A DNA stretch of 57,427 nucleotides from a virus (taxonomy: Duplodnaviria; Heunggongvirae; Uroviricota; Caudoviricetes), in IMG/VR virus record IMGVR_UViG_2778261297_000008. One strand, given 5' to 3'. The notes beneath the pieces are model-generated. The model was not told where the DNA came from, searched no databases, and saw only the letters and a list, made by a program, of their open reading frames with translations. The number at the start of each line of letters is the position of its first letter. Within the stretch, counting starts at the first letter, position 1. Positions 4,171 through 53,613 of the stretch are shown here, one piece after another. A program made the position numbers and the translations under genes.

Positions 4171-4995
4171 TCAGGCGATGAAAGTACCAATAAAGGTTTC
4201 TACTTTGCTGTCCTTGAATTTCTCAACAAGCAGATCACGAAATTCGTTAGCCATTTCTTCCTGCACCGCCTCCAGCTGAATAATGCGCAGAACCAGTACA
4301 GGACGATCGCCAGTGATAATACTGAGGCGTAATTTAAACGGACGTTCTTTCAGACCTTCAAACGGAACGCATTTAAATTCAAATGCCACTGGCATAATGT
4401 CTTTGGTCTTCGCTTCGACAGACTCCATCAGGGAGCGTTTGCCGCTGAAGTCATTATCTTCAAAATCAGCGGTCTGGTTTGCTTCAATCGTGATTTTACG
4501 GACAGCCGCAGCCGCTTTTGTTGCCTGAATAGCGTCACCATTAGCATCAAAGCCCACAAGATAGTCGGCCCAGTCTTCAATCCATTCTGCTAGTGACTTC
4601 TGGGAGTTACGCTCGCCGTTAACAGACAACAGAGCAGAGAACGGTGCTGTCTTTTTCAGTTTGAGTGTGGCGGTGTTATCTGCGTGACCTGGTTCATCAA
4701 TAGTACCCAGGTTAAGCACACTGACGGCACGCATATTATCAGCATCGATAAAGCAGCGGGTGCCTTCATCTGCAAGATCTTTAGAATAACGGGTAAAGTC
4801 ATCGATGCTGGCAGTGGAAAGCGCACCACGGAAACGGAAGCGATTTAAATTAAATTTTTCCAGATCATGAATGCGGAAATTCTCAGGCAATGCCACAGCA
4901 TCGGCACCAATCTTACTGATAATTTCATTAACACCCTGAGCAGAAATAAGGGCATGGATTTGATTAATTGCGGTTGCGTCTAAGTTCTGAGACAT
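4171..4995 (-). CDS. YfdQ-like (DUF2303) prophage protein
   Basis: 274-aa ORF, SD GTGAGGA upstream; recalled similarity to CPS-53 YfdQ. Confidence 0.65.
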
Positions 4996-5060: not shown

Positions 5061-5423
5061 TTAATGACCTGCTGCGCGAAGTTTTCCGTCAGGTTCACCG
5101 GCAAGAGTCAGTAATTGTCCCTGGTCTTCCTGCAGAATAGTCAGGCGACCACCGCGATTGACATACATCGGTGTTTCGGTGGTGTCTTCTTCAGAAATTT
5201 TCCCGCGGTTAGTCGGGCGAACATATGAGAGTTTGTGTTTGATTTTCACACGGTTCTCATCAAACGGTTCGATTTCCAGGTTGAGTGAGACCTTACCTTT
5301 GGTTTTCGTGTTCATCACACCGGAAGCGACTTCACTGAGAACTGCGCCGATTTTGGTTTCAAATACGCCGCCGTCCAGCTCCCCGATAAATGCCTGCACA
5401 TCAGTACTGCGTTCGCTAGCCAT
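5061..5423 (-). CDS. YfdP-like small prophage protein (start at MASERSTD... with SD GGAG)
   Basis: ORF-track frame 5061-5654; the upstream extension overlaps a structured non-coding region, so the internal ATG at 5423 is preferred. Confidence 0.5.
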   Translation of the reverse strand: MASERSTDVQAFIGELDGGVFETKIGAVLSEVASGVMNTKTKGKVSLNLEIEPFDENRVKIKHKLSYVRPTNRGKISEEDTTETPMYVNRGGRLTILQEDQGQLLTLAGEPDGKLRAAGH

Positions 5424-5557
5424 TTTGCTGCTCCTCATCATATCGACCCTGTAAGGTCGGTTAGTTTCTCCACAAAACAGAGAAGAACACCTGCGGTGGC
5501 AGCCGCCCGGATGGATTGGGTTATGAGCCCGTCGTCCGGTGATGCTCTTCTCTGTTT

Positions 5558-5606
5558 TGTAAAAAGAGCGGTACCAGCCGGAAGCAAGGGTACAAACTGG
5601 TACCGC
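5558..5606 (-). terminator. Candidate intrinsic terminator or attenuator in the early-left leader (10-bp GC stem plus U-run on the minus strand)
   Basis: Perfect inverted repeat GCGGTACCAG (5568-5577) / CTGGTACCGC (5597-5606); on the minus strand it is followed by TCTTTTTTACA. Confidence 0.4.
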
Positions 5607-6074
5607 CAAAGCAGTGGCTGTTGTGGTGGGGTTGTCACTCAGGCGTATGGTCAACCTGACAATCCGGTGTCCTCAACGGGGAAAGAGTAACCCCGCCATA
5701 CTTACCGCCGCGCCATTTCGCGGATTACCACAACGCTGAGAGCACTTAGCCAGTTACGGCACCACACTTTGTCGCGGCTCCATAAATGCCCTCATCGTTG
5801 CACCCTGGTCTCTTCCCAGGCGTCAAACCGAATCGCCACGCTGGTTAGGCGTCTTATCAGCATCATCATTGACTTGCACATTCCGGCTACCTGGTTTGTT
5901 TGCCCGAGCAAGGAGTGGATTGTCCCCTTTAACGTCCCCAGACCGCTAACGACGCATGTGCCATACGCCGTGTTACAACCAAATTTTGTTAGTACCTTGT
6001 TTGTCTGGAAAGAAAGATAAAATGAAGTTGCGCATTATGCAAGTGTTTTTGTTGCGAGATATGCAATTTAAAGG

Positions 6075-6121: not shown

Positions 6122-6814
6122 TTAATTGTGTCGCTTAAGGGTTTGTGACTGGCTGATTAAGACCTTTCCAAAGACCATAAACCGGTGTTCATTTTCGCTG
6201 GTAATTCCCCATTCACGGTAAATCTGGTTATCAGAAATCACCAGTAGTTTGTCAGGTATCATTTGCAGTCGTTTGACATAAATTTTATCATCAAAACCAA
6301 ATACATAGATACCATCTCCATCAAACTGATTGATACTGACATCAACGAAGATGAGATCTCCTGGCTCAATGGTTGGACACATACTGTCCCCACGAACGTT
6401 GATAACTTTAATGTGATTGGCTGGCCGTCCGCCAAACATCGATACAGCATTATCAGTTCTGTATTCAATGGCATGAATCACATCAATGACATCACCGCCC
6501 TGGATAAGGCCATTTCCCGCACTGGCACTGACATCCAGCATTTCAATACGGAATACATCCTTCACCTGCGCAACATCCTCACTAATACTGTTTTTACATA
6601 CAGTATTACTTTTGAAGTCTGAGGTAAAGAGATCAGCAATATCAACACCTAAGCTCTTGGCAATATTACTCAGGGCTTGTTCAGTGAATTGTTTCTGCTT
6701 ACCTGTTTCCAGGCGTGAGATATTCGCCGCATCCACTCCTATTGCTTCAGCGAGATCGGCGATTTTCATGTTCTTCGCCTGGCGAAGTTGTCTGACTCGT
6801 TTTCCTATGTTCAT
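6122..6814 (-). CDS. CI-like phage repressor (N-terminal HTH + C-terminal S24 LexA-like peptidase domain)
   Basis: 230 aa; N-terminal HTH (IADLAEAIGVDAANISRLETGK), C-terminal S24-like region (NVRGDSMCPTIEPGDLIFVD...KRL); divergent from the cro-like gene. Confidence 0.9.
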   Translation of the reverse strand: MNIGKRVRQLRQAKNMKIADLAEAIGVDAANISRLETGKQKQFTEQALSNIAKSLGVDIADLFTSDFKSNTVCKNSISEDVAQVKDVFRIEMLDVSASAGNGLIQGGDVIDVIHAIEYRTDNAVSMFGGRPANHIKVINVRGDSMCPTIEPGDLIFVDVSINQFDGDGIYVFGFDDKIYVKRLQMIPDKLLVISDNQIYREWGITSENEHRFMVFGKVLISQSQTLKRHN

Positions 6815-6911: not shown

Positions 6912-7172
6912 ATGCAATCACCATTACGGAATGTGCGTAAGGCGCACGGATTTACTTTGCAGCATGTTGCTGCTGGCGTTCAGGTCAATCCAGCGACGCT
7001 GAGTCGTATTGAAAGACTGGAACAAATTCCATCTATCGATCTTGCAGAACGTCTGGCCAATTTTTTTAAGGGTGAAATCAGCGAAATGCAGATTCTTTAT
7101 CCGGCACGTTTTCAATCTAGCCAAAACCAGAATGGGTTTAAACCACAGGAACAGGAGGTAAGCCGTGGGTAA
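6912..7172 (+). CDS. Cro-like HTH regulator
   Basis: 86 aa, HTH (FTLQHVAAGVQVNPATLSRIER), SD GGAGGT upstream, divergent from the repressor. Confidence 0.8.
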   Translation: MQSPLRNVRKAHGFTLQHVAAGVQVNPATLSRIERLEQIPSIDLAERLANFFKGEISEMQILYPARFQSSQNQNGFKPQEQEVSRG

Positions 7173-7722
7173 TCATCACTGGAAAGTGGAAAAACAGCCT
7201 GAGTGGTACGTGAAAGCTGTCAGAAAAACTATCGCGGCGTTGCCGGGGGGTTACGCTGAAGCTGCTGAGTGGCTGGATGTAACAGAGAACGCATTATTTA
7301 ACCGCCTTCGTGCCGATGGCGATCAGATTTTCCCGCTGGGATGGGCAATGATTTTACAACGTGCTGGTGGCACTCACTTCATTGCTGACGCTGTGGCGCA
7401 GTCTGCAAATGGCGTCTTTGTGTCTCTTTCTGACGTCGAGGATGTGGACAATGCCGATATTAACCAGCGTTTACTGGAAGTCATTGAACAGATCGGCAGT
7501 TATTCAAAACAGATTCGTTCGGCAATCGAAGACGGTGTAGTGGAACCGCATGAGAAGACAGCAATTAACGACGAGCTGTACCTCTCAATTTCGAAGCTGC
7601 AGGAGCATGCAGCACTTGTCTACAAAATTTTTTGCGTTTCAGAAAGTAATGACGCCCGCGAGTGTGCAGCTCCGGGCGTCGTGGCGTCGATTGCTTCTGG
7701 TTGTGGAGAAACTAACGCATGA
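7165..7722 (+). CDS. CII-like / YdaT-family phage regulatory protein
   Basis: 185-aa ORF just after cro with AGGAGG 6 nt before a GTG start; family assignment from memory. Confidence 0.55.
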
Positions 7723-8057
7723 ACAGTTTAACAACACACTACCGTCGCTCGCAACTGATTGCGCTTCCTGTACCGGGTGGAAAAGCGAAGGTGGAGTATT
7801 GCTATGCAGTAAATGTACCAGGTGACAGGGAAATTGTAACCCACAGCTTTGCTGAGTGGGCTGTGGGGGATTTCAACCGGCAGAAGGAGACAGTCCTTTG
7901 CGACAAGTTAACCGCTGGTTCAAAGATCACTACGGAGTGCCCGTCAGAGTCATTCGTTGGGAGCCGGAAACACAACGGGTTATCTACCTCCGTGAAGGCT
8001 ATGAGCATGAGTGCTTCAGCCCGCTCGAACAGTTTCGTCGTAAATTCAGGGAAATAG
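7719..8057 (+). CDS. Small phage ORF, frame A (ATG coupled to upstream stop); C-terminal half looks non-protein-like
   Basis: ATGA overlap with upstream gene and GGAGAA SD; mutually exclusive with, or frameshifted relative to, 7856-8077. Confidence 0.3.
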
Positions 8058-8077
8058 AGGTCGGTCATGAGCACTAA
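7856..8077 (+). CDS. Small phage ORF, frame B (protein-like C-terminus, GTG start)
   Basis: Translation [49 protein letters not shown] looks like a real protein; stop overlaps the start of the replication gene. Confidence 0.35.
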
Positions 8078-9038
8078 ATTAACCGGCTATGTATGGGATG
8101 GTTGCGCTGCGTCAGGCATGAAATTATCCAGCGTGGCAATTATGGCCCGCCTGGCTGATTTCAGTAATGACGAAGGTGTGTGCTGGCCATCAATTGAAAC
8201 TATTGCCCGTCAGATTGGCGCGGGGATGAGTACCGTCAGAACGGCTATCGCACGGCTGGAAGCAGAAGGCTGGTTAACGCGTAAGGCGCGTCGCCAGGGT
8301 AACCGCAATGCGTCGAATGTTTATCAGCTTAACGTTGCGAAGCTTCAGGCAGCGGCATTTTCTCAACTGTCAGATTCTGACCCGTCAAAATCTGACGCAT
8401 CAAAATCTGACCCGTCAAAATCTGACGCATCAAAATCTGACCCGTCAAAATTTGATGCGTCGAAATCTGGCAAAAAAGCGGGTTTTCACCCGTCAGAATC
8501 TGGCGGGGATCCGTCAGTAAAATCAAAACATGATCCGTCAGATAAAAAACCTTCTCGTCCGGACGCTTCGCAACCGGACACGCAGACGGCTGAACAGGAT
8601 TTTTTAACTCGCCATCCTGATGCGGTTGTATTCAGCCCTAAAAAGCGCCAGTGGGGAACGCAGGATGATTTGACCTGCGCACAGTGGCTCTGGAAAAAAA
8701 TCATTGCCCTGTACGAGCAGGCCGCCGAATGTGACGGCGAGGTGGTTCGTCCCAAAGAACCGAACTGGACAGCATGGGCAAACGAAATTCGCCTGATGTG
8801 TGTGCAGGATGGTCGTACTCACAAACAAATCTGCGAGATGTACAGCCGCGTCAGCCGCGATCCGTTCTGGTGCCGTAACGTGCTCAGCCCGTCGAAGTTG
8901 CGGGAAAAATGGGATGAGCTTTCCCTGCGCTTATCGCCGTCCGTCAGCACGCAAACAGAAAAACGTGAAGACCCGTACTTCAAAGCCAGTTACGACAACG
9001 TGGACTACAGCCAGATCCCGGCAGGATTCAGGGGGTGA
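8067..9038 (+). CDS. Phage replication initiator / replisome organiser (N-terminal winged helix; internal ori iterons)
   Basis: 323 aa; N-terminal HTH (IETIARQIGAGMSTVRTAIARLEAEGWL); internal DPSKSDASKS peptide repeats encoded by tandem 15-bp DNA repeats. Confidence 0.8.
   Translation: MSTKLTGYVWDGCAASGMKLSSVAIMARLADFSNDEGVCWPSIETIARQIGAGMSTVRTAIARLEAEGWLTRKARRQGNRNASNVYQLNVAKLQAAAFSQLSDSDPSKSDASKSDPSKSDASKSDPSKFDASKSGKKAGFHPSESGGDPSVKSKHDPSDKKPSRPDASQPDTQTAEQDFLTRHPDAVVFSPKKRQWGTQDDLTCAQWLWKKIIALYEQAAECDGEVVRPKEPNWTAWANEIRLMCVQDGRTHKQICEMYSRVSRDPFWCRNVLSPSKLREKWDELSLRLSPSVSTQTEKREDPYFKASYDNVDYSQIPAGFRG
8369..8473. repeat. Seven tandem 15-bp iterons (GTCAAAATCTGACSC-like), candidate phage origin inside the replication gene
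   Basis: Direct tandem repeats read in the sequence, with degenerate copies to ~8550; analogous to lambda ori inside gene O. Confidence 0.6.
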
Positions 9039-9040
9039 TC

Positions 9041-9529
9041 ATGAGTCTTTTGAATGACGTTCAGAAATTCATTGAAGCCCATCCGGGCTGTACTTCCGGA
9101 GACATTGCAGATGCTTTTGCTGGTTACTCACGGCAGCGCGTTCTGCAGTCAGCAAGCAAGTTACGTCAGAGTGGGCGTGTGGCTCACCGTTGTGAAGGAG
9201 ATACACGCAGACATTTCCCGCGCCTGACTGAGAGAGCGCAGGAGCCGGAACCACAATCGGTTCGTGAAACCAGACCTGTGCGCAATTTCTATGTCGGCAC
9301 TAACGACCCCCGGGTGATTTTGTGCCTGACCCGCCAGGCTGAAGAACTGGAGTCCAGGGGCTTATTCCGTCGAGCTGCAACGGTGTGGATGGCGGCATTC
9401 CGTGAAAGCCACTCCCAGCCAGAACGAAACAATTTTCTGGCGCATCGTGAGCGGTGCTTACGGAAAAGCAGCAAGCGCGCTGCATCGGGTGAAGAGTGGT
9501 ATCTGTCAGGGAATTACGTGGGGGCTTAA
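9041..9529 (+). CDS. PerC/Pch-like (ANR family) transcriptional regulator homologue
   Basis: C-terminal region EELESRGLFRRAATVWMAAF...RERCL resembles the PerC family; ORF-track start 9035 is GTG, ATG at 9041 has an SD. Confidence 0.5.
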   Translation: MSLLNDVQKFIEAHPGCTSGDIADAFAGYSRQRVLQSASKLRQSGRVAHRCEGDTRRHFPRLTERAQEPEPQSVRETRPVRNFYVGTNDPRVILCLTRQAEELESRGLFRRAATVWMAAFRESHSQPERNNFLAHRERCLRKSSKRAASGEEWYLSGNYVGA

Positions 9530-10182
9530 TGAGTAATAAATATTGCCAGGCGCTGGTGGAGCTGCGGAACAAACCAGCCCATGAACTGAAGGAAGTGGGC
9601 GATCAGTGGCGCACGCCGGACAACATTTTCTGGGGAATTAACACCCTGTTTGGCCCGTTTGTTCTGGATCTGTTTACTGATGGTGATAACGCCAAATGTG
9701 CCGCGTATTACACGGCGGAAGACAACGCGCTGGCGCATGACTGGTCAGAACGTCTTGCGGAGCTTAACGGTGCTGCCTTTGGTAATCCCCCGTACAGCCG
9801 CGCCAGTCAGCATGAGGGGCAATACATCACCGGCATGCGTTACATCATGAAACATGCCAGTGCTATGCGTGATAAAGGCGGGCGCTATGTTTTCCTGATC
9901 AAAGCTGCCACCAGCGAAGTGTGGTGGCCGGAAGATGCAGATCATATTGCTTTTATTCGCGGGCGTATCGGTTTTGAACTGCCTGCCTGGTTTATCCCGA
10001 AGGATGAGAAGCAGGTGCCGACAGGAGCTTTCTTCGCTGGTGCTATTGCTGTTTTCGACAAGACCTGGAAGGGACCGGCAATCAGCTACATCGGGCGCGA
10101 TGAACTTGAGGCATGTGGTGAGGCCTTTCTGGCGCAGGTTCGCCAGCAGGCAGAAAAACTGGTCAGGGAGATGGTGGCATGA
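9529..10182 (+). CDS. Phage Dam-family DNA N6-adenine methyltransferase
   Basis: NPPY motif (FGNPPYSR); start ATG overlaps upstream stop. Confidence 0.8.
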   Translation: MSNKYCQALVELRNKPAHELKEVGDQWRTPDNIFWGINTLFGPFVLDLFTDGDNAKCAAYYTAEDNALAHDWSERLAELNGAAFGNPPYSRASQHEGQYITGMRYIMKHASAMRDKGGRYVFLIKAATSEVWWPEDADHIAFIRGRIGFELPAWFIPKDEKQVPTGAFFAGAIAVFDKTWKGPAISYIGRDELEACGEAFLAQVRQQAEKLVREMVA

Positions 10183-10505
10183 CGACGTTAACTCAATGCC
10201 AGCAGCAGGTGCTGGATATGCTGATTTCTTATCAGAAAGAACGTGGCTTCCCGCCAACCAATCAGGAGGTGGCAACCATGCTGGGATACCGTTCGGTGAA
10301 TGCAGCGGTGGAGCATCTTCGCGCACTGGAGAAAAAAGGCGTCATCACGATAAAGCGTGGTGTGGCCCGGGGGATAACGCTTCATACCGCGGTCAAGGAC
10401 GACGACAGCGAGGCGGTCGGGATTATCCGCTCACTGCTTGCCGGTGAGGAAAACGCCAGGCTGCGTGCAGCCCACTGGTTACATGAGAGGGGTCTGAAAG
10501 TATGA
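10179..10505 (+). CDS. LexA-like N-terminal DNA-binding domain protein (no peptidase domain)
   Basis: 108 aa; LTQCQQQVLDMLISYQKERGFPPTNQEVATMLGYRSVNAAVEHLRALEKKGVI closely parallels the LexA winged-helix DNA-binding domain; no S24 domain follows. Confidence 0.7.
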   Translation: MTTLTQCQQQVLDMLISYQKERGFPPTNQEVATMLGYRSVNAAVEHLRALEKKGVITIKRGVARGITLHTAVKDDDSEAVGIIRSLLAGEENARLRAAHWLHERGLKV

Positions 10506-10891
10506 AGCTGATCCTGCCTTTCCCGCCCAGCGTGAACACGTACTGGCGACACCCCAACAAAGGGGCGTTTGCAGGTAAGAGCCTGATAAGCGCGGCGGGG
10601 CGCAAATTCCAGAGCGCGGCGTGTGCAGCAATAGTTGAGCAGTTACGTCGTCTGCCAAAACCAACGTCGGCACCTGCTTCAGTGGAGATCGTGTTGTTTC
10701 CTCCGGATAACCGGATCCGCGATCTGGACAACTATAACAAGGCGCTGTTTGACGCCCTGACCCACGCGGGTGTGTGGGAAGACGACAGCCAGGTGAAAAG
10801 AATGCTGGTGGAGTGGGGACCGGTTATCCCGGAAGGGAAGGTCGAGATCACTATCAGTAAGTACGAGAAAACGGCGGGTGCAGCCGCCTGA
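10502..10891 (+). CDS. rusA: RusA-like Holliday junction resolvase
   Basis: 129 aa; LPFPPSVNTYW and DLDNYNKALFDALTHAGVWEDDSQV motifs typical of RusA. Confidence 0.85.
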   Translation: MKLILPFPPSVNTYWRHPNKGAFAGKSLISAAGRKFQSAACAAIVEQLRRLPKPTSAPASVEIVLFPPDNRIRDLDNYNKALFDALTHAGVWEDDSQVKRMLVEWGPVIPEGKVEITISKYEKTAGAAA

Positions 10892-10910
10892 TCAAGAGGA
10901 GAAACGAAAT

Positions 10911-11708
10911 ATGAATAATCTGATGGTCATTGATGGTATTGAAGTTCGTCGTGATGCTTATGGGCGTTACAGCCTGAACGATCTGCACAGGGCTGCTGGT
11001 TCTCTGGATAAGCATAAGCCTGCATTCTGGCTCCGCAATGAGCAAACCGAACGTTTAATAAGCGAGTTGCAGATTTGCAACTCGGTCAATATAGAGCCAG
11101 TTAACGTTAGTCGTGGCGGAAATAACCAGGGGACGTATGTCTGCAAAGAACTGGTGTATGCCTATGCAATGTGGATCAGCCCGTCATTCCATCTGAAGGT
11201 GATCCGTACTTTCGATATGGTAACCAGCGCACCGGAAAAATTATCCGGGCAGGCTGCTGACAAGATGCAGGCTGGCGTGATTCTGCTGGACTTTATGCGC
11301 CGGGAGTTAAACCTGTCTAACTCATCTGTGCTTGGGGCCTGTCAGAAACTCCAGGAGGCTGTTGGCTTACCGAATCTGGCACCACGCTATGCCATTGATG
11401 CTCCTGCAGACGCGCCTGATGGCTCAAGTCGCCCTACGCTGTCGCTGAGTGCACTGCTGAAACAGTATGGTATCCGCCTAACAGCTAATCAGGCATATCA
11501 CCAGATGGCGAAGCTGGGGATCGTCGAGCAGCGCGAACGATACAGCCGTACCGCGATTAACAACATCAAAAAATTCTGGTCGCTGACAGCGAAAGGCTGC
11601 ATGTTCGGCAAGAACATCACCAGTCCCGCAAATCCGCGCGAGACGCAGCCGCATTTCTTCGAATCCCGATTCCCTGAGCTGTTAAAGCTGCTCGATACCG
11701 TTCATTGA
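10911..11708 (+). CDS. KilA-N domain protein
   Basis: N-terminal KilA-N-like region (YSLNDLHRAAG...KPAFWLRNEQTERLI); ATG at 10911 with SD AGAGGAG. Confidence 0.75.
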   Translation: MNNLMVIDGIEVRRDAYGRYSLNDLHRAAGSLDKHKPAFWLRNEQTERLISELQICNSVNIEPVNVSRGGNNQGTYVCKELVYAYAMWISPSFHLKVIRTFDMVTSAPEKLSGQAADKMQAGVILLDFMRRELNLSNSSVLGACQKLQEAVGLPNLAPRYAIDAPADAPDGSSRPTLSLSALLKQYGIRLTANQAYHQMAKLGIVEQRERYSRTAINNIKKFWSLTAKGCMFGKNITSPANPRETQPHFFESRFPELLKLLDTVH

Positions 11709-11709
11709 G

Positions 11710-12705
11710 GTGACCGTGAGAGCACTACTGACCCCTGAAATTGCCCCGCGTATGGGGATCGTATTGTTCAGACCAGGTTCAGAGCTGATGCCCCTGTTTA
11801 TGCAGGGGCGTGTCCTGCTGGAGCCTGAGCCGGAACGTTATTCATCTTTCGCCAGTGGTGCTGTTCCGGCGGCATCACAACCGCTGGCGGATGATCCTGC
11901 CGTTCGGGCCGTGTTCCGCAATGAGGCAGTGATCCGTCGTGCTGGTGGCGTGGAATGTCTTGAAAGCTGGTTACTTCGTGAAAAAGGCTGCCAGTGGCCT
12001 CATTCCGACTGGCACAGCGAGAACATGACCACAATGCGTCACGCGCCGGGCGCAATCTGTCTGTGCTGGCACTGCGATAACCAGCTGCGCGATCAGTTCA
12101 CGGAACGGCTGGAATCAATGGCAACGGATAACTGTGCCCGCTGGGTGTTGTCTGTCGTGCGTCGGGATCTCGGTTTTGATGATAGTCACGTTGTGACAAT
12201 GCCGGAACTGTGCTGGTGGCTGGTTCGTAATGATCTGGCGGATGCCTTACCTGAAAGTGCAGCCCGTAAGGCACTGAGATTACCGAAGCCTGTTGTGCCG
12301 TCTGTCACCCGGGAGAGTGACCTTGTTCCTTCGGTTCCGGCCACCAGCATCATCCAGAATAAAGCGAAAAAGGTGCTGGCGCTGAAAGTGGATCCGGAGT
12401 CGCCGGAGTCTTTTATGTTACGCCCAAAACGTCGCCGCTGGGTTAACGAAAAGTACACGCGCTGGGTTAAGACGCAGCCGTGTGCATGTTGTGGAAAGCC
12501 TGCTGATGATCCCCACCACCTGATAGGCCACGGTCAGGGTGGAATAGGTACAAAAGCGCATGACCTCTTCGTGCTGCCTTTGTGCAGAAAGCATCACGAC
12601 GAGCTGCATGCGGATACCGTGGCATTTGAAGAGAAGTATGGCTCCCAGTTGGAGCTGATATTTCGTTTTATCGATCGCGCGCTGGCAACTGGCGTGCTGG
12701 CCTGA
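11710..12705 (+). CDS. DUF968-like phage protein with C-terminal Cys/His (HNH-like) region
   Basis: 331-aa ORF; C-terminal CACCGKPADDPHHL...CRKHHDELH; start uncertain (GTG 11710 or 11716). Confidence 0.7.
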   Translation: MTVRALLTPEIAPRMGIVLFRPGSELMPLFMQGRVLLEPEPERYSSFASGAVPAASQPLADDPAVRAVFRNEAVIRRAGGVECLESWLLREKGCQWPHSDWHSENMTTMRHAPGAICLCWHCDNQLRDQFTERLESMATDNCARWVLSVVRRDLGFDDSHVVTMPELCWWLVRNDLADALPESAARKALRLPKPVVPSVTRESDLVPSVPATSIIQNKAKKVLALKVDPESPESFMLRPKRRRWVNEKYTRWVKTQPCACCGKPADDPHHLIGHGQGGIGTKAHDLFVLPLCRKHHDELHADTVAFEEKYGSQLELIFRFIDRALATGVLA

Positions 12706-12722
12706 TTTTGTGGAGAAAGTTG

Positions 12723-13085
12723 ATGCGTGATATTCAGATGGTTCTGGATCGTTGGGGTGCATGGGCGGCGAGTGATAGTTCTGGGGTAGACTATTCGCCT
12801 ATAGCTGCTGGGTTTAAAGGGCTTCTTCCCTATACAAGCAAAACACGTCAGGCTTGTTCAGATAGTGATGCATTAATTATTGAAGGTTGTCTTGCTCGTC
12901 TAAAGCAAAAAAGACCTGAAGAACACTCGCTTCTTGTTGCCCATTACCTATACGGTATCTCTAAAAGAAAGCTCGCTAAAGCTCGCAAAAAGGATGAGAA
13001 AATAATACGCATTGAGATACAGATGGCTGAGGGATTTATAGAAGGTTGTCTAGCTATTCTAAATGTTAGCTTAGATATGGATTAA
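12723..13085 (+). CDS. Late-gene antiterminator Q-like protein
   Basis: MRDIQMVLDRWGAWAA... matches the Q antiterminator family N-terminus; SD GGAGAAAG before ATG 12723. Confidence 0.8.
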   Translation: MRDIQMVLDRWGAWAASDSSGVDYSPIAAGFKGLLPYTSKTRQACSDSDALIIEGCLARLKQKRPEEHSLLVAHYLYGISKRKLAKARKKDEKIIRIEIQMAEGFIEGCLAILNVSLDMD

Positions 13086-13128
13086 TATCTTGGTTTGGAT
13101 AAGCAGGTGTGCTTGCACCTGCTTAATA

Positions 13129-13581
13129 TTATATGTGGGGTAATATCCAGTTTATTTTCCTCCAGGTACTTGCAAATGAAACTATTGATACGATCAGGGT
13201 CGAGAAACCATATAAGGTTAGGGCGAAATCAAGTCTTACAGAGGTAATGGTGATTTTTTCATTTATAAACATTGCTATCAGCGGGAAAATACATGCTAAT
13301 ATTAAGGTAACTCCCGTAGATAACAGGTTATGAATAATTTTAGGTAAAATCTTGTTTTGTTTTAAAGCAAAAATAATTCCATCAGTACTTGAACTTGCAG
13401 AACTGAAGATGGAAATAGCGGCCAATACAAAACCAAACAAAATGCCTGCCACCGTAGATAACACTCCGGCTGTACTTAAGATATCAGAGTGAGCCATAGG
13501 CGCTAGGTATTTCCCAAGCACCCAAGCTAACAGCCCACTGATAACTATGTTAATTAAAACTTTAATAAGCATAATCATCAT
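13129..13581 (-). CDS. Small integral membrane protein (~4 predicted TM helices), second gene of an AT-rich two-gene cassette
   Basis: 150 aa with four long hydrophobic segments; SD AAGGA before ATG; 14 bp downstream of the 310-aa gene on the same strand. Confidence 0.7.
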   Translation of the reverse strand: MMIMLIKVLINIVISGLLAWVLGKYLAPMAHSDILSTAGVLSTVAGILFGFVLAAISIFSSASSSTDGIIFALKQNKILPKIIHNLLSTGVTLILACIFPLIAMFINEKITITSVRLDFALTLYGFSTLIVSIVSFASTWRKINWILPHI

Positions 13582-13595
13582 CCTTAAAAATAAGA

Positions 13596-14528
13596 TCAGA
13601 TTTCATATTGCTTTAAATACTGACCATGTTCAATTTTAGCACTGATCAAGGCAGTACGCACATCTGTTTCTTTTGCGTAGCCATCTTTTGTGTTAATGTT
13701 TTTTTCACTGATCAGAACTTGATTGAGAAGACTCCTTGAATGAGTATTTTTAGGTTCAGTGACATTAGCTTTACGTAATAAGTGAGGAACTTTTTCTATT
13801 AATTCCTTTATTCCACTTTTTACTTCATCACTGAGATAACCACGGATTAATTTACGTTGCGATGCTCTACCTCTAAGTGATAGTTTTAAATGCGAACCGC
13901 CCATCCCAGCCATCATTTCAATCATACTTTTGGAAAATGAATTCGAAAGGTCATAATCCGTTGCGCTAAAATTACGTGGAGCGGCGAGTGTAATTTCACA
14001 GCTACGTAAAGTGCTTCCTGTTTCAAGTAGTTCTTTTACACTTTCTTTTTTCCAAATTGCCTCAAACGCTACAGGTTTGTTTTCTTCAGAAAAATTGAAT
14101 AAAAGAAATGCTAAATCGGAAACTTTAGGTCCTAAATGATTTTGAGATAAAACAAGAATGTCTTTCTTATAGTAGTAAATAAAATAAGTGCGTTCGACTA
14201 TATATTTTTTATCATCTAACGGAATATTGTGCTCATCCCAATTTTCATCACCAATATAAGGTAAGTGGAAACCATCACGAGAGCATGATAGATAACCAAA
14301 ATAGAACTCCGCCTGTGCGTCTTTTTCTAAGAATACAATCTTTAATTTTTTCTTATCAAACTCAGCGGTATAAGAATTTTGCGAAGGTGTAACAATGGTT
14401 GTATACATGTTGTCAAATGCAAGTTGTGCATTTGATGTAGTTGACTTCGTTCCTGAGGAGCTTTGGAAGAAACCGATACGCATTTTTTTTTGTTTAGTTA
14501 GTGGCGCGGAAGTGGCTGTAGTAGTCAT
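13596..14528 (-). CDS. Uncharacterised 310-aa soluble protein, first gene of the two-gene cassette
   Basis: Long ORF in a visibly AT-rich block with a plausible SD; no motif I can assign (no Walker A, HEPN, PD-(D/E)xK or nucleotidyltransferase signature seen by eye). Confidence 0.75.
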   Translation of the reverse strand: MTTTATSAPLTKQKKMRIGFFQSSSGTKSTTSNAQLAFDNMYTTIVTPSQNSYTAEFDKKKLKIVFLEKDAQAEFYFGYLSCSRDGFHLPYIGDENWDEHNIPLDDKKYIVERTYFIYYYKKDILVLSQNHLGPKVSDLAFLLFNFSEENKPVAFEAIWKKESVKELLETGSTLRSCEITLAAPRNFSATDYDLSNSFSKSMIEMMAGMGGSHLKLSLRGRASQRKLIRGYLSDEVKSGIKELIEKVPHLLRKANVTEPKNTHSRSLLNQVLISEKNINTKDGYAKETDVRTALISAKIEHGQYLKQYEI

Positions 14529-14684
14529 TAAAATTACCCTTTATTATCCTTTTGAATCAATGGGTTGTGATTTGTTAATGATCCTAGGTTCGTTGCATAT
14601 GCATAATCTATCAAAAAAAACTTACGCGGTCCGCATATTCTCGTTTACTGTGTTAAGAGTGGTTACTTCGCCACACAACTTAAA

Positions 14685-14706
14685 CCCGCCGCTGAGCGGT
14701 TTTTTT
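14685..14706 (+). terminator. Weak hairpin plus T7 run; possible tR'-like late-leader terminator
   Basis: CCGC-TGA-GCGG followed by TTTTTTT, upstream of the late region. Confidence 0.3.
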
Positions 14707-14827
14707 GTACCTGTAAACCTTGTGCAGTACAGTAAACACGCTGGTGGTCGTGAATACTGGCTTTTTATCTTGCTGGCTTTTTAGACAAGAGTTATTGGTA
14801 TGTCATGTTAACCAGAAGGGAAAAGAC

Positions 14828-15031
14828 ATGCTAAAACAGCAAGATATGACAGAAACCGCCGCCGCAGTCCTTCATTTCTTACCTGCTGACAAGTGGGTAA
14901 CGCCACGCATGATGACGAGAACTACCGGAGTAAGCGAAGCCAGGTGCCAGTTAATACTGACTCAGTTAGTTCTGGCGGGTCTGGCGAAGGATAACGGCGG
15001 GTACGGGAATAAATTCAGACGCTGCCAGTAA
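14828..15031 (+). CDS. Small hypothetical protein (67 aa, possible winged helix)
   Basis: ATG with SD GAAGGGA; short, no recognisable domain. Confidence 0.35.
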   Translation: MLKQQDMTETAAAVLHFLPADKWVTPRMMTRTTGVSEARCQLILTQLVLAGLAKDNGGYGNKFRRCQ

Positions 15032-15181
15032 TGGCGGTTTCCTGCTGTGAAAATGGGCGGCTGGTGGGTGTTGGTAGCACCTGCCAGCCATTCGCTCATG
15101 CTTACTGGTCACAAGCGAACCACGGCCCACTGCTTTAGCGCAAAAGCAGAGTGAGCCTACCAGAGTTACGCTTACTGATCC

Positions 15182-16234
15182 ATGAAAAATACTGTAAAAA
15201 TAAACAGTGTTGATTTAATCAACGCTGATTGCCTGCATTTTATTCAGTCCCTGCCTGATGATTCCATTGACCTGATTGTTACCGATCCGCCTTACTTCAA
15301 GGTGAAACCTAACGGTTGGGACAATCAGTGGAAAGGGGACGAAGATTACCTTAAGTGGCTGGACCACTGTCTGGCCCAGTTCTGGCGGGTGTTAAAACCT
15401 GCCGGAAGCCTTTACCTGTTCTGTGGGCATCGCCTGGCATCTGATATTGAGATCATGATGCGTGAACGTTTCAACGTGCTTAACCATATCATCTGGGCGA
15501 AGCCGTCCGGACGTTGGAATGGGTGTAATAAAGAAAGTCTGCGCGCATATTTTCCTGCCACAGAGCGCGTTCTGTTTGCTGAACATTACCAGGGGCCATA
15601 TCGCGGCAAAAGTGACGGCTATGCGGCAAAAGAAAGGGAACTCAAACAGCACATAATGGCACCGCTGATATCGTATTTCAGGGATGCTCGTGCCGAACTG
15701 GGTATAACGGCAAAACAAATTGCCGAAGCCACAGGTAAGAAAAATATGGTTTCCCACTGGTTTGGTGCCAGTCAGTGGCAGTTGCCGAATGAGGCTGACT
15801 ATCGGAAGTTACAGGCACTGTTTTCCCGTATAGCGGCAGAGAAGTTTCAGGAACAACAACTGGAACAACCACACCACCAGCTGGTGGCATCTTATGATTC
15901 ACTGAATCGCAAATATTCTGAATTGCTGGATGAGTTTAAATCTCTCCGGCGCTATTTCTCCGTATCAGTCTCCGTGCCTTATACCGATGTCTGGATGCAT
16001 AAACCCGTTCAGTTCTACCCGGGTAAACATCCGTGTGAGAAACCTGCGGATATGCTCCGGCAAATAATCAATGCCAGTAGTCGACCTGGTGATCTGGTTG
16101 CTGATTTTTTTATGGGATCCGGTTCCACAATAAAAGCAGCAATGGCGCTGGGGCGTCGGGCCTTAGGTGTTGAGCTTGAGTCAGAGCGGTTTAACCAGAC
16201 AGTGAAAGAGATAAACGAGCTGGTGGGGAAATAA
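15182..16234 (+). CDS. DNA methyltransferase (N6-adenine or N4-cytosine; DPPY motif), orphan with no visible cognate nuclease
   Basis: 350 aa; DPPY (LIVTDPPYF) and FxGxG (FFMGSGST) motifs. Confidence 0.85.
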   Translation: MKNTVKINSVDLINADCLHFIQSLPDDSIDLIVTDPPYFKVKPNGWDNQWKGDEDYLKWLDHCLAQFWRVLKPAGSLYLFCGHRLASDIEIMMRERFNVLNHIIWAKPSGRWNGCNKESLRAYFPATERVLFAEHYQGPYRGKSDGYAAKERELKQHIMAPLISYFRDARAELGITAKQIAEATGKKNMVSHWFGASQWQLPNEADYRKLQALFSRIAAEKFQEQQLEQPHHQLVASYDSLNRKYSELLDEFKSLRRYFSVSVSVPYTDVWMHKPVQFYPGKHPCEKPADMLRQIINASSRPGDLVADFFMGSGSTIKAAMALGRRALGVELESERFNQTVKEINELVGK

Positions 16235-16237
16235 TCT

Positions 16238-16263
16238 GGTGGCCACGTAGGTGGCCTTTTTAT
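16238..16263 (+). terminator. Intrinsic terminator after the methyltransferase
   Basis: Hairpin GGCCACGTAGGTGGCC followed by TTTTTATTT. Confidence 0.7.
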
Positions 16264-16300
16264 TTCCATTACACAGCACCCGCATCTGCGAGGTGGGGTT

Positions 16301-17751: not shown

Positions 17752-18284
17752 AAATTAATCCGGATCTTATAGGCGTTGTCGTTATTGCTGGCCTTTCGGT
17801 CGCTCTCGTCAAGAGTTGCTCTCACGCCAGTAATCTTCAGAGCGATAACGACGTTCTGCGAAGTGACAACTCTATGCTGGGGCAGGTAATCGCCACCCAG
17901 GCATTCAACTTCAATCGATTCAATCAGGTTGCAGAACATGCCAACAGTCTTAACTCCCTGATCGACACCAGCACCGAAAAAACCGTAATCGAATACCGGG
18001 AGATTCTCCGCCGTGAAAAAACCTGTGATCTGCCTGTTCCTGCTGATATCGCTGGTGGGTTGCTCGAATACACGTACCGTTTACGTGCCAGCGCCATGCA
18101 CACCGATACCGGCAGACCTAATGAAGCCTATGATCGTACCGCTACCACCAGCTCAATGACCTACTGCCAAGCTGTCTTGTGGATTAAGCCGCTACTGGCG
18201 TTGATAGAAAAAGGAAATAATAATTTTTCGAGTATTCGTGAAATTGATGAGTTGCGTTACAGACCATCTGAGCATGGCCAGTAA
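17748..18284 (+). CDS. Rz: Rz-like i-spanin
   Basis: ATG overlaps the R stop; N-terminal TM segment; embedded Rz1-like ORF in the +1 frame supports the call. Confidence 0.7.
   Translation: MKINPDLIGVVVIAGLSVALVKSCSHASNLQSDNDVLRSDNSMLGQVIATQAFNFNRFNQVAEHANSLNSLIDTSTEKTVIEYREILRREKTCDLPVPADIAGGLLEYTYRLRASAMHTDTGRPNEAYDRTATTSSMTYCQAVLWIKPLLALIEKGNNNFSSIREIDELRYRPSEHGQ
18013..18159 (+). CDS. Rz1: Rz1-like o-spanin lipoprotein embedded in Rz (+1 frame), GTG start
   Basis: Translation VKKPVICLFLLISLVGCSNTRTVYVPAPCTPIPADLMKPMIVPLPPAQ: lipobox LVGC then Pro-rich mature peptide. Confidence 0.65.
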   Translation: MKKPVICLFLLISLVGCSNTRTVYVPAPCTPIPADLMKPMIVPLPPAQ

Positions 18285-18452
18285 GGTTGCAGGAAATTTA
18301 AAATCTGGCGATGAAATTTAATATTAGAAATTCATTGCCTAGTGAGATTAATAATGGGCATCCCTTTGTGACGATAAGCTTTAACACATTCACAAAGGGA
18401 TATTTAATATAGGGTGGTTAATTCCCACTTGCTGTGGTGTTTAGGGGGTAAT

Positions 18453-19145
18453 TCAAATCTTATCTAACTCATTATAGGCTTCGATAATAAAAATTCTGAT
18501 TTTAATAAGGCATGATTCAATGAAAGGAATTACTTCATGGTCATTCCCATGGAATCTTATTTTTTTCTCTTCGGTAATGACTATGTTTAAAGGTACACCA
18601 TTACCACTTCTTTGTAATTTCCCATTTTCGAAAGTAAAGTCTTCTAATTTTTTGCCATTGATGTGGTTGTTTTTAAAGAGAATTTTTGCTGAGCTTCCTG
18701 CTGTGATTAAACCAAAACCATCTACGCTCACACTTAGGTCTTTAACAGAACTCTCTTCTCTTAAGGGGATTGGTTGTCTGTGCTTTACTTCATTAGTGAG
18801 ATTACACATCATTTCCAACCAAGATTCGCCAGTGTGATAATCCTGTATAGAAGTAAAAATTTTATATAATGGAGAAGATGATGGTGGGTTTATTTTTAGC
18901 GTCTTTGAGAAAAATTTATCAATAAACTCTCTTTTTCCGTAAGGGAAATATATTTTGGGGCGCTCATCATTACTGCGTGGAGAAATATATTTATCATAGG
19001 TATCATTAGCGAGATACTCTAAGGAACTTCGTAAGTTTTCCAAAATAGCTTTGACTTTTACAGGCTTGATATGCTGTGTCTGTCTCATTATGTCAAGACT
19101 TTCTTCAACTTCTTGCAATAAGTCCAACGAGCCTTCTCTAGACAT
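18453..19145 (-). CDS. Uncharacterised 230-aa protein encoded on the opposite strand between the lysis cassette and cos
   Basis: ATG with SD AAAGGAGA; AT-rich by eye; opposite orientation to flanking late genes; no assignable domain. Confidence 0.7.
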   Translation of the reverse strand: MSREGSLDLLQEVEESLDIMRQTQHIKPVKVKAILENLRSSLEYLANDTYDKYISPRSNDERPKIYFPYGKREFIDKFFSKTLKINPPSSSPLYKIFTSIQDYHTGESWLEMMCNLTNEVKHRQPIPLREESSVKDLSVSVDGFGLITAGSSAKILFKNNHINGKKLEDFTFENGKLQRSGNGVPLNIVITEEKKIRFHGNDHEVIPFIESCLIKIRIFIIEAYNELDKI

Positions 19146-19519
19146 ACAGGTAATTCTCCTTTATGAATTTTCAACATGTTATAACTAATAATATATTTAT
19201 CATATAACTGTATGAATAAATTGTGAGATTAGTAATGCAAGTTTCTATCCATAGTGTTCTCTAAGTACCCGCTTCCATCATGTTGTTACGGACGGTATGG
19301 CTAAAACAAAGCACCTGAAGTTAAACGTTCTGAACTTTATGCTCGTTGAGCATATGAATTATCTGTAACCCGATGCGCTGGTTGTGGTTCACATTGATGG
19401 TCGTAATCAGCAGCGGTGGTGCCTGATGGCATGCAACTTCTTACTTATAAAACTTCGTATGGAATTGTTGCCATAACGAGCCCAGCTTAGCAGTTTTTAA
19501 TGGGTCCTCCCGGCAGTGT

Positions 19520-51123: not shown

Positions 51124-53613
51124 ATGACTACCAACAAGAGGCATATTTTATTAAACGGCTATGTTTCCCCCGAAAACTATCGCTCTAGGAGCAATGGTCG
51201 TAGTCCCCAAGTCCCAGCTCGTGATCGAGCGGTACATGGTATATCATTACTAAATCAGTATAGCCGTATATTGAATCATTATGATGAAAGACCGAGGCTT
51301 CCCCCTGTTACTGATGAAAAAGGGATTTATGTTAGGCTAATCAGTTTTGAACAATGCGATCTTCCTATAGATAAAATCGATAATACTTATTTCAAGCTTT
51401 GTTCTTTAGTTAAATCAAATAATCGTGAAACTGCGATTATATACATTAATGAAAATGACAGAACTAAATTCACTAAAAAAATAAATGACTATTTGAATCC
51501 ATCGAAGGATGGTATCGAGTTCCCTAGAAATCATTTGTTAATTGATAGCATACAAAATATCGAGTTAGCAGATATAACTTCTTTCTGGACAGATAAAAAA
51601 GATCTTATTCCGGATGATCACGGTGTTGAAAAGTGGTTTGAGCTTTGGCTTAAGGGTAATAAGGAGGATGTGCTAAATATTGCTCGGCGTTTATGCGAAA
51701 GAATTAATGGAAGGCTCGGGAATACTTCTATTAATTTTTTCGATACTACTGTTGTTCTTATCCGTACGAGTCTATCGAGATTAAAAGTTTGTCCTGAATT
51801 AATATCTAATTTAAAAGAGATAAGATCAGCGAGGGATGATATATCAGTTATAGTTAATTCCTTACCTACAGAACAGCATCAGTGGGCAGAAAATGTTGCT
51901 GCAAGAATTACGCGTAACAATGAAGCTGATGTTTCTGTTTGTATATTAGATACAGGTGTTAACTACAATAATCCACTATTATCTAGATTTACTAACTCAT
52001 CACTGGCAGCTGCTTGGGACATATCTTGGCCACTTTTCGATGATTATAATCAAAGGCCTTATAATGACCACGGTTCCAGACAAGCAGGACTATGTGTTTA
52101 TGGAGATTTCCTGTCTGTTTTATTGAACGATCAGGACATTTCGATTCCGTACAATATCGAATCAGGAAGGATACTACCTCCAAGAGCTACTAATGATCCT
52201 AATCTTTATGGAGCTATTACTACAGGAACGTCAAGTCGTCTGGAGCTGGAAAACCCGAACTGGCGCAGAGTTTATTCGCTTGCTGTGACAGCAGAGCCTA
52301 ATACTCTTGGAGGCCAACCGTCCTCATGGTCTGCAGAGATTGACAAGTTTAGTTTTGGTTTAGAGGATGATATCCGCAGATTATTTATAATTTCTGCGGG
52401 TAACTCTCAACCTACAAATTTAGAATTAGATTATTGGGATTCAGTGACTCTTGCTGAAATTGAAGATCCTGCTCAATCTTGGAATGCATTAACTGTAGGG
52501 GCGTATACTGATAAAACAACCCATACAGACCGCGAATATGATGGTTGGTCTCCTTTCGCTATGTCAGAAGATATTGCACCGTCATCTCGGTCATCGGTAT
52601 CCTGGGGATGGAAAAAGCATGCCCCATATAAGCCAGATTTAGTAGAGGAAGGCGGAAACAAACTTATATCACCTAGCCGTGATGAAATCACAAATACAAT
52701 TGAATTATCTTTGCTCACAACCTCTGGCAGGGCAACAAATCAATTGTTTGAAGTTAATTCAGATACTAGCGCAGCCTGTGCTCTAGTATCAAAACATGCT
52801 GCTATGCTAATGGCTCAGTACCCAGAATATTGGCCTGAAACTATTAGGGGATTACTTGTTCATACAGCAAGATGGACTAGTCGTATGCACGAACGATATA
52901 GAACAGAACGTGCACAGGGGACACCAAAATCGGCTAAAGAAAGCTTATTAAGGATGGTTGGTTATGGAGTACCTAATTTAAATCGAGCAATGCATAGTGC
53001 GGAAAATGCACTTACATTAATATCTCAGTCGGAAATCACCCCATTTAAAAGAGATGGTTCTACTGATCCTACATTGAATGAAATGCATCTGTTTTCACTC
53101 CCTTGGCCCGTAGAAGCTCTTCGCTTACTACCACCAGAAACAAATGTTATTTTAAGAATCACATTGTCGTATTTTATTGAACCTAATCCAAGTCAAAAAG
53201 GATTCAGACGACAATATTCGTATCAATCTCATGGATTGAGATTTGCAGTTATTAGACCTAATCAGACCCTTGAAAATTTCCGTGCTTCGATAAACCGTAA
53301 TGCGAATAATGAAGAATACAATGGACCTGAAGGAGATGCGTCAGGATGGTTTCTGGGGCCTCAACTCAGAGTTAGAGGTTCATTACACTCAGATGCTTGG
53401 AAAGGCAGTGCTGCAGATTTAACAGAGATGAATACTATCGCTGTCTATCCTGTTGGTGGATGGTGGAAATATCGTACTGCGCAGGATCGCTATATTAACA
53501 ATGTTAAATATAGTTTATTGGTTAGCATAGATGTACCAGATGAGAACATTGATATTTACAGTGAGATTCAAAACATTATTCAAATTGATAATCAAATAGA
53601 TATTGAACATTAA
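51124..53613 (+). CDS. ietS: Subtilisin-like S8 serine peptidase (IetS-like), 829 aa
   Basis: Candidate catalytic triad contexts ILDTGV (Asp), NDHGS (His), DTSAACA (Ser); co-oriented 8 bp after the AAA+ gene. Confidence 0.8.
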   Translation: MTTNKRHILLNGYVSPENYRSRSNGRSPQVPARDRAVHGISLLNQYSRILNHYDERPRLPPVTDEKGIYVRLISFEQCDLPIDKIDNTYFKLCSLVKSNNRETAIIYINENDRTKFTKKINDYLNPSKDGIEFPRNHLLIDSIQNIELADITSFWTDKKDLIPDDHGVEKWFELWLKGNKEDVLNIARRLCERINGRLGNTSINFFDTTVVLIRTSLSRLKVCPELISNLKEIRSARDDISVIVNSLPTEQHQWAENVAARITRNNEADVSVCILDTGVNYNNPLLSRFTNSSLAAAWDISWPLFDDYNQRPYNDHGSRQAGLCVYGDFLSVLLNDQDISIPYNIESGRILPPRATNDPNLYGAITTGTSSRLELENPNWRRVYSLAVTAEPNTLGGQPSSWSAEIDKFSFGLEDDIRRLFIISAGNSQPTNLELDYWDSVTLAEIEDPAQSWNALTVGAYTDKTTHTDREYDGWSPFAMSEDIAPSSRSSVSWGWKKHAPYKPDLVEEGGNKLISPSRDEITNTIELSLLTTSGRATNQLFEVNSDTSAACALVSKHAAMLMAQYPEYWPETIRGLLVHTARWTSRMHERYRTERAQGTPKSAKESLLRMVGYGVPNLNRAMHSAENALTLISQSEITPFKRDGSTDPTLNEMHLFSLPWPVEALRLLPPETNVILRITLSYFIEPNPSQKGFRRQYSYQSHGLRFAVIRPNQTLENFRASINRNANNEEYNGPEGDASGWFLGPQLRVRGSLHSDAWKGSAADLTEMNTIAVYPVGGWWKYRTAQDRYINNVKYSLLVSIDVPDENIDIYSEIQNIIQIDNQIDIEH

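Follow-up and report, generated by a model that had tools for sequence, protein, structure and literature searches.

RexAB-type systems, in which a gene for a cytoplasmic protein is followed after a short spacer by a gene for a small membrane protein, are the closest described relatives of the locus treated here, a two-gene cassette at positions 13129-14528 of the virus record IMGVR_UViG_2778261297_000008 (Caudoviricetes), a stretch of 57,427 nucleotides referred to below as the window. In lambda, RexA and RexB (Pfam PF15969/PF15968; PDB 8TWQ) have 279 and 144 amino acids (aa), respectively. Validated relatives include RexABpp (PP_5643/PP_5644) from the Pseudomonas putida prophage P1 and Sucellos (SclA/SclB) from a Vibrio cholerae integron (strain N16961, cassette 68). 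In the actinobacteriophage pairs Sbash gp30/gp31 and CarolAnn gp44/gp43, a cytoplasmic protein is combined with an effector of four transmembrane (TM) helices, defence has been validated and membrane potential is lost (PMC6426596); Sbash gp31 is an experimentally validated RexB-like effector (PMC6426596). Sucellos, which is included in DefenseFinder, is structurally RexAB-like and is unmatched by the Rex Pfam domains. Both of its two genes are needed, SclB is a predicted transmembrane pore, the system has its own promoter and its phenotype is abortive; it is distributed mainly in prophages, often those of Salmonella, and also occurs in a P4-like satellite. How Rex systems are activated has been an open question for 70 years, to which diverse and tractable E. 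coli homologs could contribute.

The cassette belongs to a remote sister family of RexAB, with which it has the architecture and the fold of the first protein in common. Gene A (rexA-like, 13596..14528, minus strand) encodes a cytoplasmic protein of 310 aa that belongs to Pfam family DUF6731, and gene B (rexB-like, 13129..13572, minus strand) a protein of 147 aa with four TM helices, so that the Rex-type order of co-oriented, adjacent cytoplasmic (~280-370 aa) and four-TM (~145-165 aa) genes is present; like rexAB, it is carried by a temperate lambdoid phage. The pair is very probably of the RexAB type by descent and architecture, and it likely works as a RexAB-like abortive-infection system. 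A sequence-only reading of the window had proposed an undescribed defence or abortive-infection module that could be placed in no family: the defence assignment is supported by homology, whereas the module is of a described type and its first protein finds its place through DUF6731 and through profile and fold homology to RexA. New here are the link between DUF6731 and RexA, the RexB-like partner family and the location of the pair close to the antiterminator gene Q in E. coli, Yersinia and phage cdtI. The finding reveals no new principle.

Protein A and its likeness to RexA

Protein A matches the Pfam model DUF6731 (PF20505) over residues 12-273 with 44 bits (cutoff 27; E-value 2.6e-11). It is named 'DUF6731 family protein' in RefSeq, which annotates the pair only in this way or as 'hypothetical protein'. 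Its close homologs, 64 in number and 44-100% identical, are found in Enterobacterales, and an exhaustive profile search yielded 196 representatives at 50% clustering, nearly all of them 280-320 aa long; the DUF6731 model is also matched by 122 of 138 aligned A relatives. No hydrophobic segment or TM helix is present in A according to Kyte-Doolittle hydropathy and the AlphaFold model, in agreement with the soluble protein of the sequence-only reading. In the annotation of phages vB_EcoS-733R5 (ON470608.1, 30259-31176) and vB_EcoS-716R3 (ON470622.1, 15476-16393), a 61%-identical homolog of A is labelled 'portal (connector) protein', almost certainly a mis-annotation.

The relationship to RexA becomes visible when families are compared as alignments. 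An hhalign comparison of the 138-member DUF6731 alignment with a 24-member RexA alignment gave a match of 93.2% (E-value 3e-7, score 54.1, 255 columns) that spans positions 13-294 against 1-272, near the full length of both proteins, as opposed to scores of 16.2 with the reversed RexA alignment and at most 19.5 in 15 column shuffles. Sequence identity between A and RexA is ~12-13%, and the motif GP..SDL..FL is common to both, being HLGPKVSDLAFLL in A and VFGPTTSDLTDFL in RexA. A has the RexA fold, a split globular beta-sheet domain with an inserted dimerisation domain that is RdgC-like; domain order and structural relatives are as in RexA, and RdgC is among the fold matches. As judged from profile and predicted fold, A is a homolog of RexA. 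This homology can be seen only with the broad 138-member profile; with the narrow profile or a single sequence the result is negative or weak, and none of the 138 family members reaches the RexA model when scanned singly against Pfam.

Scans of the cassette with PADLOC, Pfam, NCBIfam and PHROGs returned only DUF6731 and PHROGs of unknown function. The sequence-only reading had compared the architecture with CBASS, Pycsar and Kiwa, an analogy that does not hold: PADLOC gives 0 matches at E<=1, so that neither a cyclase (CD-NTase or PycC) nor a KwaA/KwaB-type protein is recognised, and Pfam and NCBIfam show no cyclase, TIR or nuclease domains, the lack of such motifs in the 310-aa protein having been recognised by that reading. 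Neither Pfam nor NCBIfam revealed an enzymatic or toxin domain in A. A fragment match to Lart1 (E-value 0.0035, 16.6 bits, cutoff 500) was set aside as noise. A generic toxin-antitoxin or addiction module acting without phage sensing would also take the form of a two-gene operon on mobile elements, and overexpression toxicity is known for Rex-type pairs (PMC12894663); the family scans show no similarity to toxin-antitoxin families, and the similarity of A in fold and profile is specifically to RexA, which makes this explanation very improbable.

The membrane partner and the conservation of the pair

B has four TM helices, as given by Kyte-Doolittle hydropathy and by its AlphaFold (AF2) model (pLDDT 82), and the topology proposed by the sequence-only reading is borne out. 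The hydrophobic segments (~1-22, 33-57, 79-103 and 114-136) lie at positions that match those of lambda RexB (8-26, 42-66, 84-102 and 116-139), and the loop between TM2 and TM3 is rich in lysine and arginine in both proteins. Canonical RexB proteins have 142-147 aa and begin 14-33 bp after rexA, and B has 147 aa and begins 23 bp after A. Compared by hhalign with the RexB family, B gives a match of 66-67% (E-value 5e-5, score 34.6) over 62 columns in the region TM1-loop-TM2-loop, with controls at 12.6 for the reversed alignment and at most 16.7 in 30 shuffles. Within this region lies a P..H.D.L motif that precedes TM2, and its histidine is kept by almost all members of either family. B is a probable homolog of RexB. 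In a Foldseek search of BFVD with the B model, the top three matches are phage proteins with a probability >=0.95; the second-best (probability 0.99) is a 165-aa protein of mycobacteriophage Sbash, which is taken as gp31 from its length only, and the best matches of A and of B both come from the same uncultured phage, ctylc9. A MotA_ExbB match for B (E-value 0.13) was set aside as noise.

The most conserved residues of the B family, which comprises 97 clusters, are located in TM2 and in the cytoplasmic TM2-TM3 loop. This region is needed for the effector function of Sbash gp31 (PMC6426596), which counts against an inverted logic in which toxicity or antiviral action would come from the RexA-like protein itself, and the membrane protein would only keep it sequestered until infection releases it. 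Such a logic has been reported for the Rex-like pair gp30/gp31 of mycobacteriophage Butters (PMC12894663); the same paper describes the membrane protein as the effector in four of five Rex-like systems. The strict pairing of A and B fits inverted and standard logic alike, and sequence analysis does not separate the two. The absence of enzymatic and toxin domains among the Pfam and NCBIfam matches of A speaks further against the inverted order, which appears improbable here; RexAB-like action, with B as the effector, remains the preferred reading.

The two genes have remained together over a wide range of divergence. The pair is kept from 64% to below 25% identity in phages of Enterobacterales, Vibrio, Aeromonas and Pseudomonas, and a small TM gene directly follows A in 21 of the 21 related loci that were fetched. 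In 18 of these an intact B homolog was found by tblastn, including Klebsiella loci in which gene callers had missed it; in the remaining loci (L019, L021 and L022) the TM partner after A is too divergent for tblastn. Divergence runs in parallel, with A identities of 64, 47, 45 and 36% accompanied by B identities of 58, 54, 41 and 35%. Among distant members from metagenomes, Shewanella, Pseudoalteromonas, Vibrio and Aeromonas, A is again followed by a membrane protein of 134-170 aa, and these partners have the TM2 signature S..A.L.GF..A in common. Both genes are real and not chance open reading frames (ORFs). With this, DUF6731 and its unnamed membrane partner gain a testable functional assignment, that of the former as a putative RexA-like sensor.

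The DUF6731/TM family fits the described properties of Sucellos, among them being missed by the Rex Pfam domains, and has a similar spread (Salmonella, a primase/AlpA element of Klebsiella and Vibrio). Compared by description alone, the cassette may be a member of the Sucellos family or a sister lineage, and it is possibly already covered by the Sucellos models; DUF6731 is mentioned neither in the Sucellos paper nor in its supplement. RexABpp of P. putida differs in host clade and in genomic position.

Genomic settings and proposed mode of action

In lambda, rexAB lies downstream of cI in the PRM transcript, whereas the cassette is a reverse-oriented, AT-rich cargo between Q and the late region, as the sequence-only reading had placed it, with Q on its left and methylase and lysis genes on its right. 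Its presence in this slot is variable. The exact cassette occurs in 18 of 5,426 complete E. coli genomes, always adjoining the same Q, and a second allele, with 47% protein identity and both genes annotated 'hypothetical protein', occupies the slot in 72 of the 5,426, so that at least two divergent alleles are present in about 90 genomes of this set. A third allele (62%) corresponds to orf54/orf53 of the lambdoid phage cdtI, between Q and the methylase and lysis genes, and in Yersinia prophages the cassette is found in the same Q-lysis slot with different lysis and head modules. In E. coli CREC-532 (NZ_CP024830; L033 1600-2463), a reverse-oriented NYN-domain gene replaces the cassette within the same Q and downstream backbone, and the Q-proximal site is therefore a site of cargo exchange. 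It behaves as a hotspot for swappable and probably defensive cargo. Comparison of the window with E. coli NJS001 shows colinearity only over the early/Q/cassette/methylase segment (7153-16295; 94-99% identity), the late region being wholly different; hence the cassette travels with the Q module and not with a particular virion module, a pattern that is typical of lambdoid mosaicism.

In every context seen, within this slot and elsewhere, the pair lies in mobile elements. In Klebsiella it lies within a primase/AlpA/Ash element, beside a superinfection-immunity gene. In Vibrio phage 10N.286.54.F4_PE001 (PQ189356; L048 1389-2896), a 351-aa DUF6731-like gene (39% identity by tblastn; no Pfam match at E<=0.1) and its partner of 150 aa with four TM helices stand beside the integrase; this 14.6-kb element is classified in the non-tailed Vinavirales, which shows that cargo of the Rex type also occurs beyond the tailed phages. 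The canonical order cI-rexA-rexB is seen in Pseudomonas phage AUS531phi: a distant, bona fide DUF6731 family member (48.9 bits) and, with it, the gene of a small membrane protein directly follow the gene of a Cro/CI-family repressor in the same orientation, and TM2 of the partner reads LSSVSATLLGFIIAAATLLIS, compared with LSSYAGTMIAILIAALTFLIG in lambda RexB. The post-cI position in the Pseudomonas phage and the Q slot in enterobacteria offer a natural comparison for Rex regulation, and in Enterobacterales exclusion of the Rex type extends beyond the canonical rexAB linked to cI. In the window itself, a cI-like repressor (6122-6814, minus strand; HTH and Peptidase_S24 domains) is followed by a 197-aa ORF (5061-5654) with no Pfam match and by a DUF2303 protein (4171-4995); canonical rexAB was not found after it.

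These settings bear on two other explanations. The first is a lysis-timing accessory, in which a holin-, antiholin- or spanin-like membrane protein would be paired with a regulator. B is a small multi-pass membrane protein, and in lambdoid contexts the cassette adjoins the holin/endolysin region. It runs, however, in the opposite direction to the lysis genes, with terminator-like hairpins in between; the pair lies away from lysis genes after cI (AUS531phi), beside the integrase (Vibrio) and in the primase element (Klebsiella); and the family scans gave no match to a holin family. A role in lysis timing is accordingly extremely unlikely. A position near lysis genes has a precedent among Rex-type modules, since genes 30/31 of Sbash (KP027201; L044 6934-8509) directly follow the lysin A, lysin B and holin genes and are not near the repressor.

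The second is prophage housekeeping, in which a RexA-like DNA-binding protein would tune the lysis-lysogeny switch or recombination and the membrane partner would be accessory. Lambda RexA biases the bistable switch without RexB (PMC11077077), and RdgC, whose fold is shared by proteins that regulate RecA, is among the fold matches of A. Against this stand the optional, AT-rich and swappable nature of the cassette, with its low counts among E. coli genomes and the NYN gene as alternative cargo, its occurrence in non-lambdoid elements and its strict coupling to a membrane protein, which a role in the switch or in recombination does not require. Housekeeping is for these reasons an explanation to which little credence is given, and a RexAB-like abortive-infection function is preferred.

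Several points weigh against that preference. The narrow enterobacterial profile of A has no match to the RexA family, nor to any of the PDB sequences. The curated Rex models (Pfam PF15969/PF15968; PADLOC PDLC02339/02340) give the cassette no match at E<=1, although they are matched by the lambda proteins at 1e-61 to 1e-108; PADLOC and Pfam thus miss the DUF6731 branch, and the cassette therefore lies outside the canonical RexA and RexB families, as a remote sister family. The profile match between B and RexB is moderate and covers 62 columns, the Foldseek E-values of B are weak (0.03-0.04), and lambda RexB is not among its top 50 fold matches in BFVD. The single sequences of Sbash gp30 and gp31 have no detectable similarity to the cassette in sequence or profile, and gp30 is larger (372 aa). 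The position differs from that in lambda: the cassette does not follow the cI repressor and lies on the opposite strand, with Q and the late region as its neighbours; Rex-like genes of Sbash, Butters and Rubeelu are also located away from the repressor, and a post-cI location is for this reason not a strict criterion. No convincing promoter was found upstream of A by a promoter scan and an upstream alignment. Finally, the function assigned to the cassette and to DUF6731 members is deduced from sequence, and a fold is in itself no proof of defence, because lambda RexA has RexB-independent roles in the lysis-lysogeny decision and RdgC-fold proteins act in recombination.

The mode of action proposed here is modelled on lambda RexAB, Sbash 30/31, P. 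putida RexABpp and V. cholerae Sucellos. Both genes would be expressed from the prophage in the lysogen, where the DUF6731 protein, with its RexA fold and probably as a dimer, would act as the infection sensor, either by clamping DNA or by recognising a phage protein or DNA-protein intermediate. Upon superinfection by another phage, A would activate the four-helix protein B, which, being RexB-like, would probably oligomerise into a channel or pore. Membrane potential and ATP would then collapse, leading to growth arrest or death, and the infection would be aborted before progeny are formed. Expression in the lysogen, sensing, activation of B by A, channel formation and the anti-phage phenotype are steps that we infer from these models.

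Gene boundaries, expression signals and other features of the window

The longest ORF of B (13129-13581) would encode 150 aa, the size given by the sequence-only reading together with a 14-bp gap between the genes. The third ATG, at 13572, is preceded by a Shine-Dalgarno sequence, AAGGA, 8 nt on its 5' side, homologs of B have ~147 aa, and the RefSeq annotation of identical DNA also gives 147 aa; the start is for these reasons most likely at 13572, and the gap (13573..13595), which holds this Shine-Dalgarno sequence, is consequently 23 bp and not 14 bp. The remaining boundaries, the shared orientation of the two genes and their opposition to the flanking genes were described correctly, as was the AT-richness of the cassette, whose GC content of 35.3% compares with 48.1% in the window and 50-58% in the early region to the left.

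The left border of the cargo slot is formed by the Q gene (12708..13085, plus strand), named antiterminator Q family protein in identical DNA and matching PF06530 in homologous loci. To the right follow a 67-aa ORF, a DNA methylase gene (15182-16234, plus strand) and then holin and endolysin genes; the cassette is opposite in direction to Q, methylase and holin. Q and B converge, and a strong, terminator-like hairpin with a weak U-tract (13100..13125; folding energies of -15.5 and -17.4 kcal/mol, z -5.2 and -3.7) lies between their stop codons.

On the other side, the cassette-specific upstream region of A (14529..14612, minus strand) contains a Shine-Dalgarno sequence, AAGGG, and a weak sigma-70-like match (14571-14543, ATCACA-17-GATAAT, 9/12) that is too close to it, and is a candidate promoter only. 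Alignment of the sequences upstream of the cassettes shows, instead of clear -35 and -10 elements, a conserved non-coding block (14613..14706). It contains two hairpins, at 14623-14637 and 14688-14700, and after each of them one strand carries a T-run. Cassettes of E. coli, Citrobacter, Yersinia and Xenorhabdus, their proteins sharing only 47-64% identity, conserve this block much better than the adjoining coding genes. The block has no Rfam match, and only its right part (from ~14650/14684) recurs in mEp460-like and Stx2c phages without the cassette. It may represent a late-promoter/terminator region, or it may regulate the cassette.

A broader interpretation joins these signals with the ancestry of the pair. 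The DUF6731/four-TM pair would be an unrecognised sister lineage of RexAB, distinct from Sucellos and RexABpp and travelling as free-standing cargo, and its hairpin-bracketed, reverse placement beside block 14613-14706 would tie expression to the state of the prophage: the genes would be active in the lysogen, and at induction late transcription or convergent read-through would silence them. Taken as a whole, this combination is rather unlikely; if true, it would show how a Rex-type suicide system spares its own phage.

Other parts of the window contain further features. A 230-aa ORF (18453-19145, minus strand) lies in an AT-rich island (18101-19500) between the lysis genes and the terminase, in a slot that holds bor/iss in related prophages; it has no Pfam or PADLOC match and is a candidate moron. 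A 304-aa ORF (42847-43761, minus strand), which likewise matches nothing in Pfam or PADLOC, follows closely on the tail-fibre genes, where the window is richest in AT (~31% GC). A defence island (46797-53613) lies past the tail genes of the prophage and comprises an AbiTii-family gene (46797-47717, minus strand), an IS110-family transposase (47890-49167, minus strand) and an IetA/IetS pair (50129-51115 and 51124-53613, plus strand), which is matched by PADLOC with E-values of 5.5e-77 and 2.9e-34.

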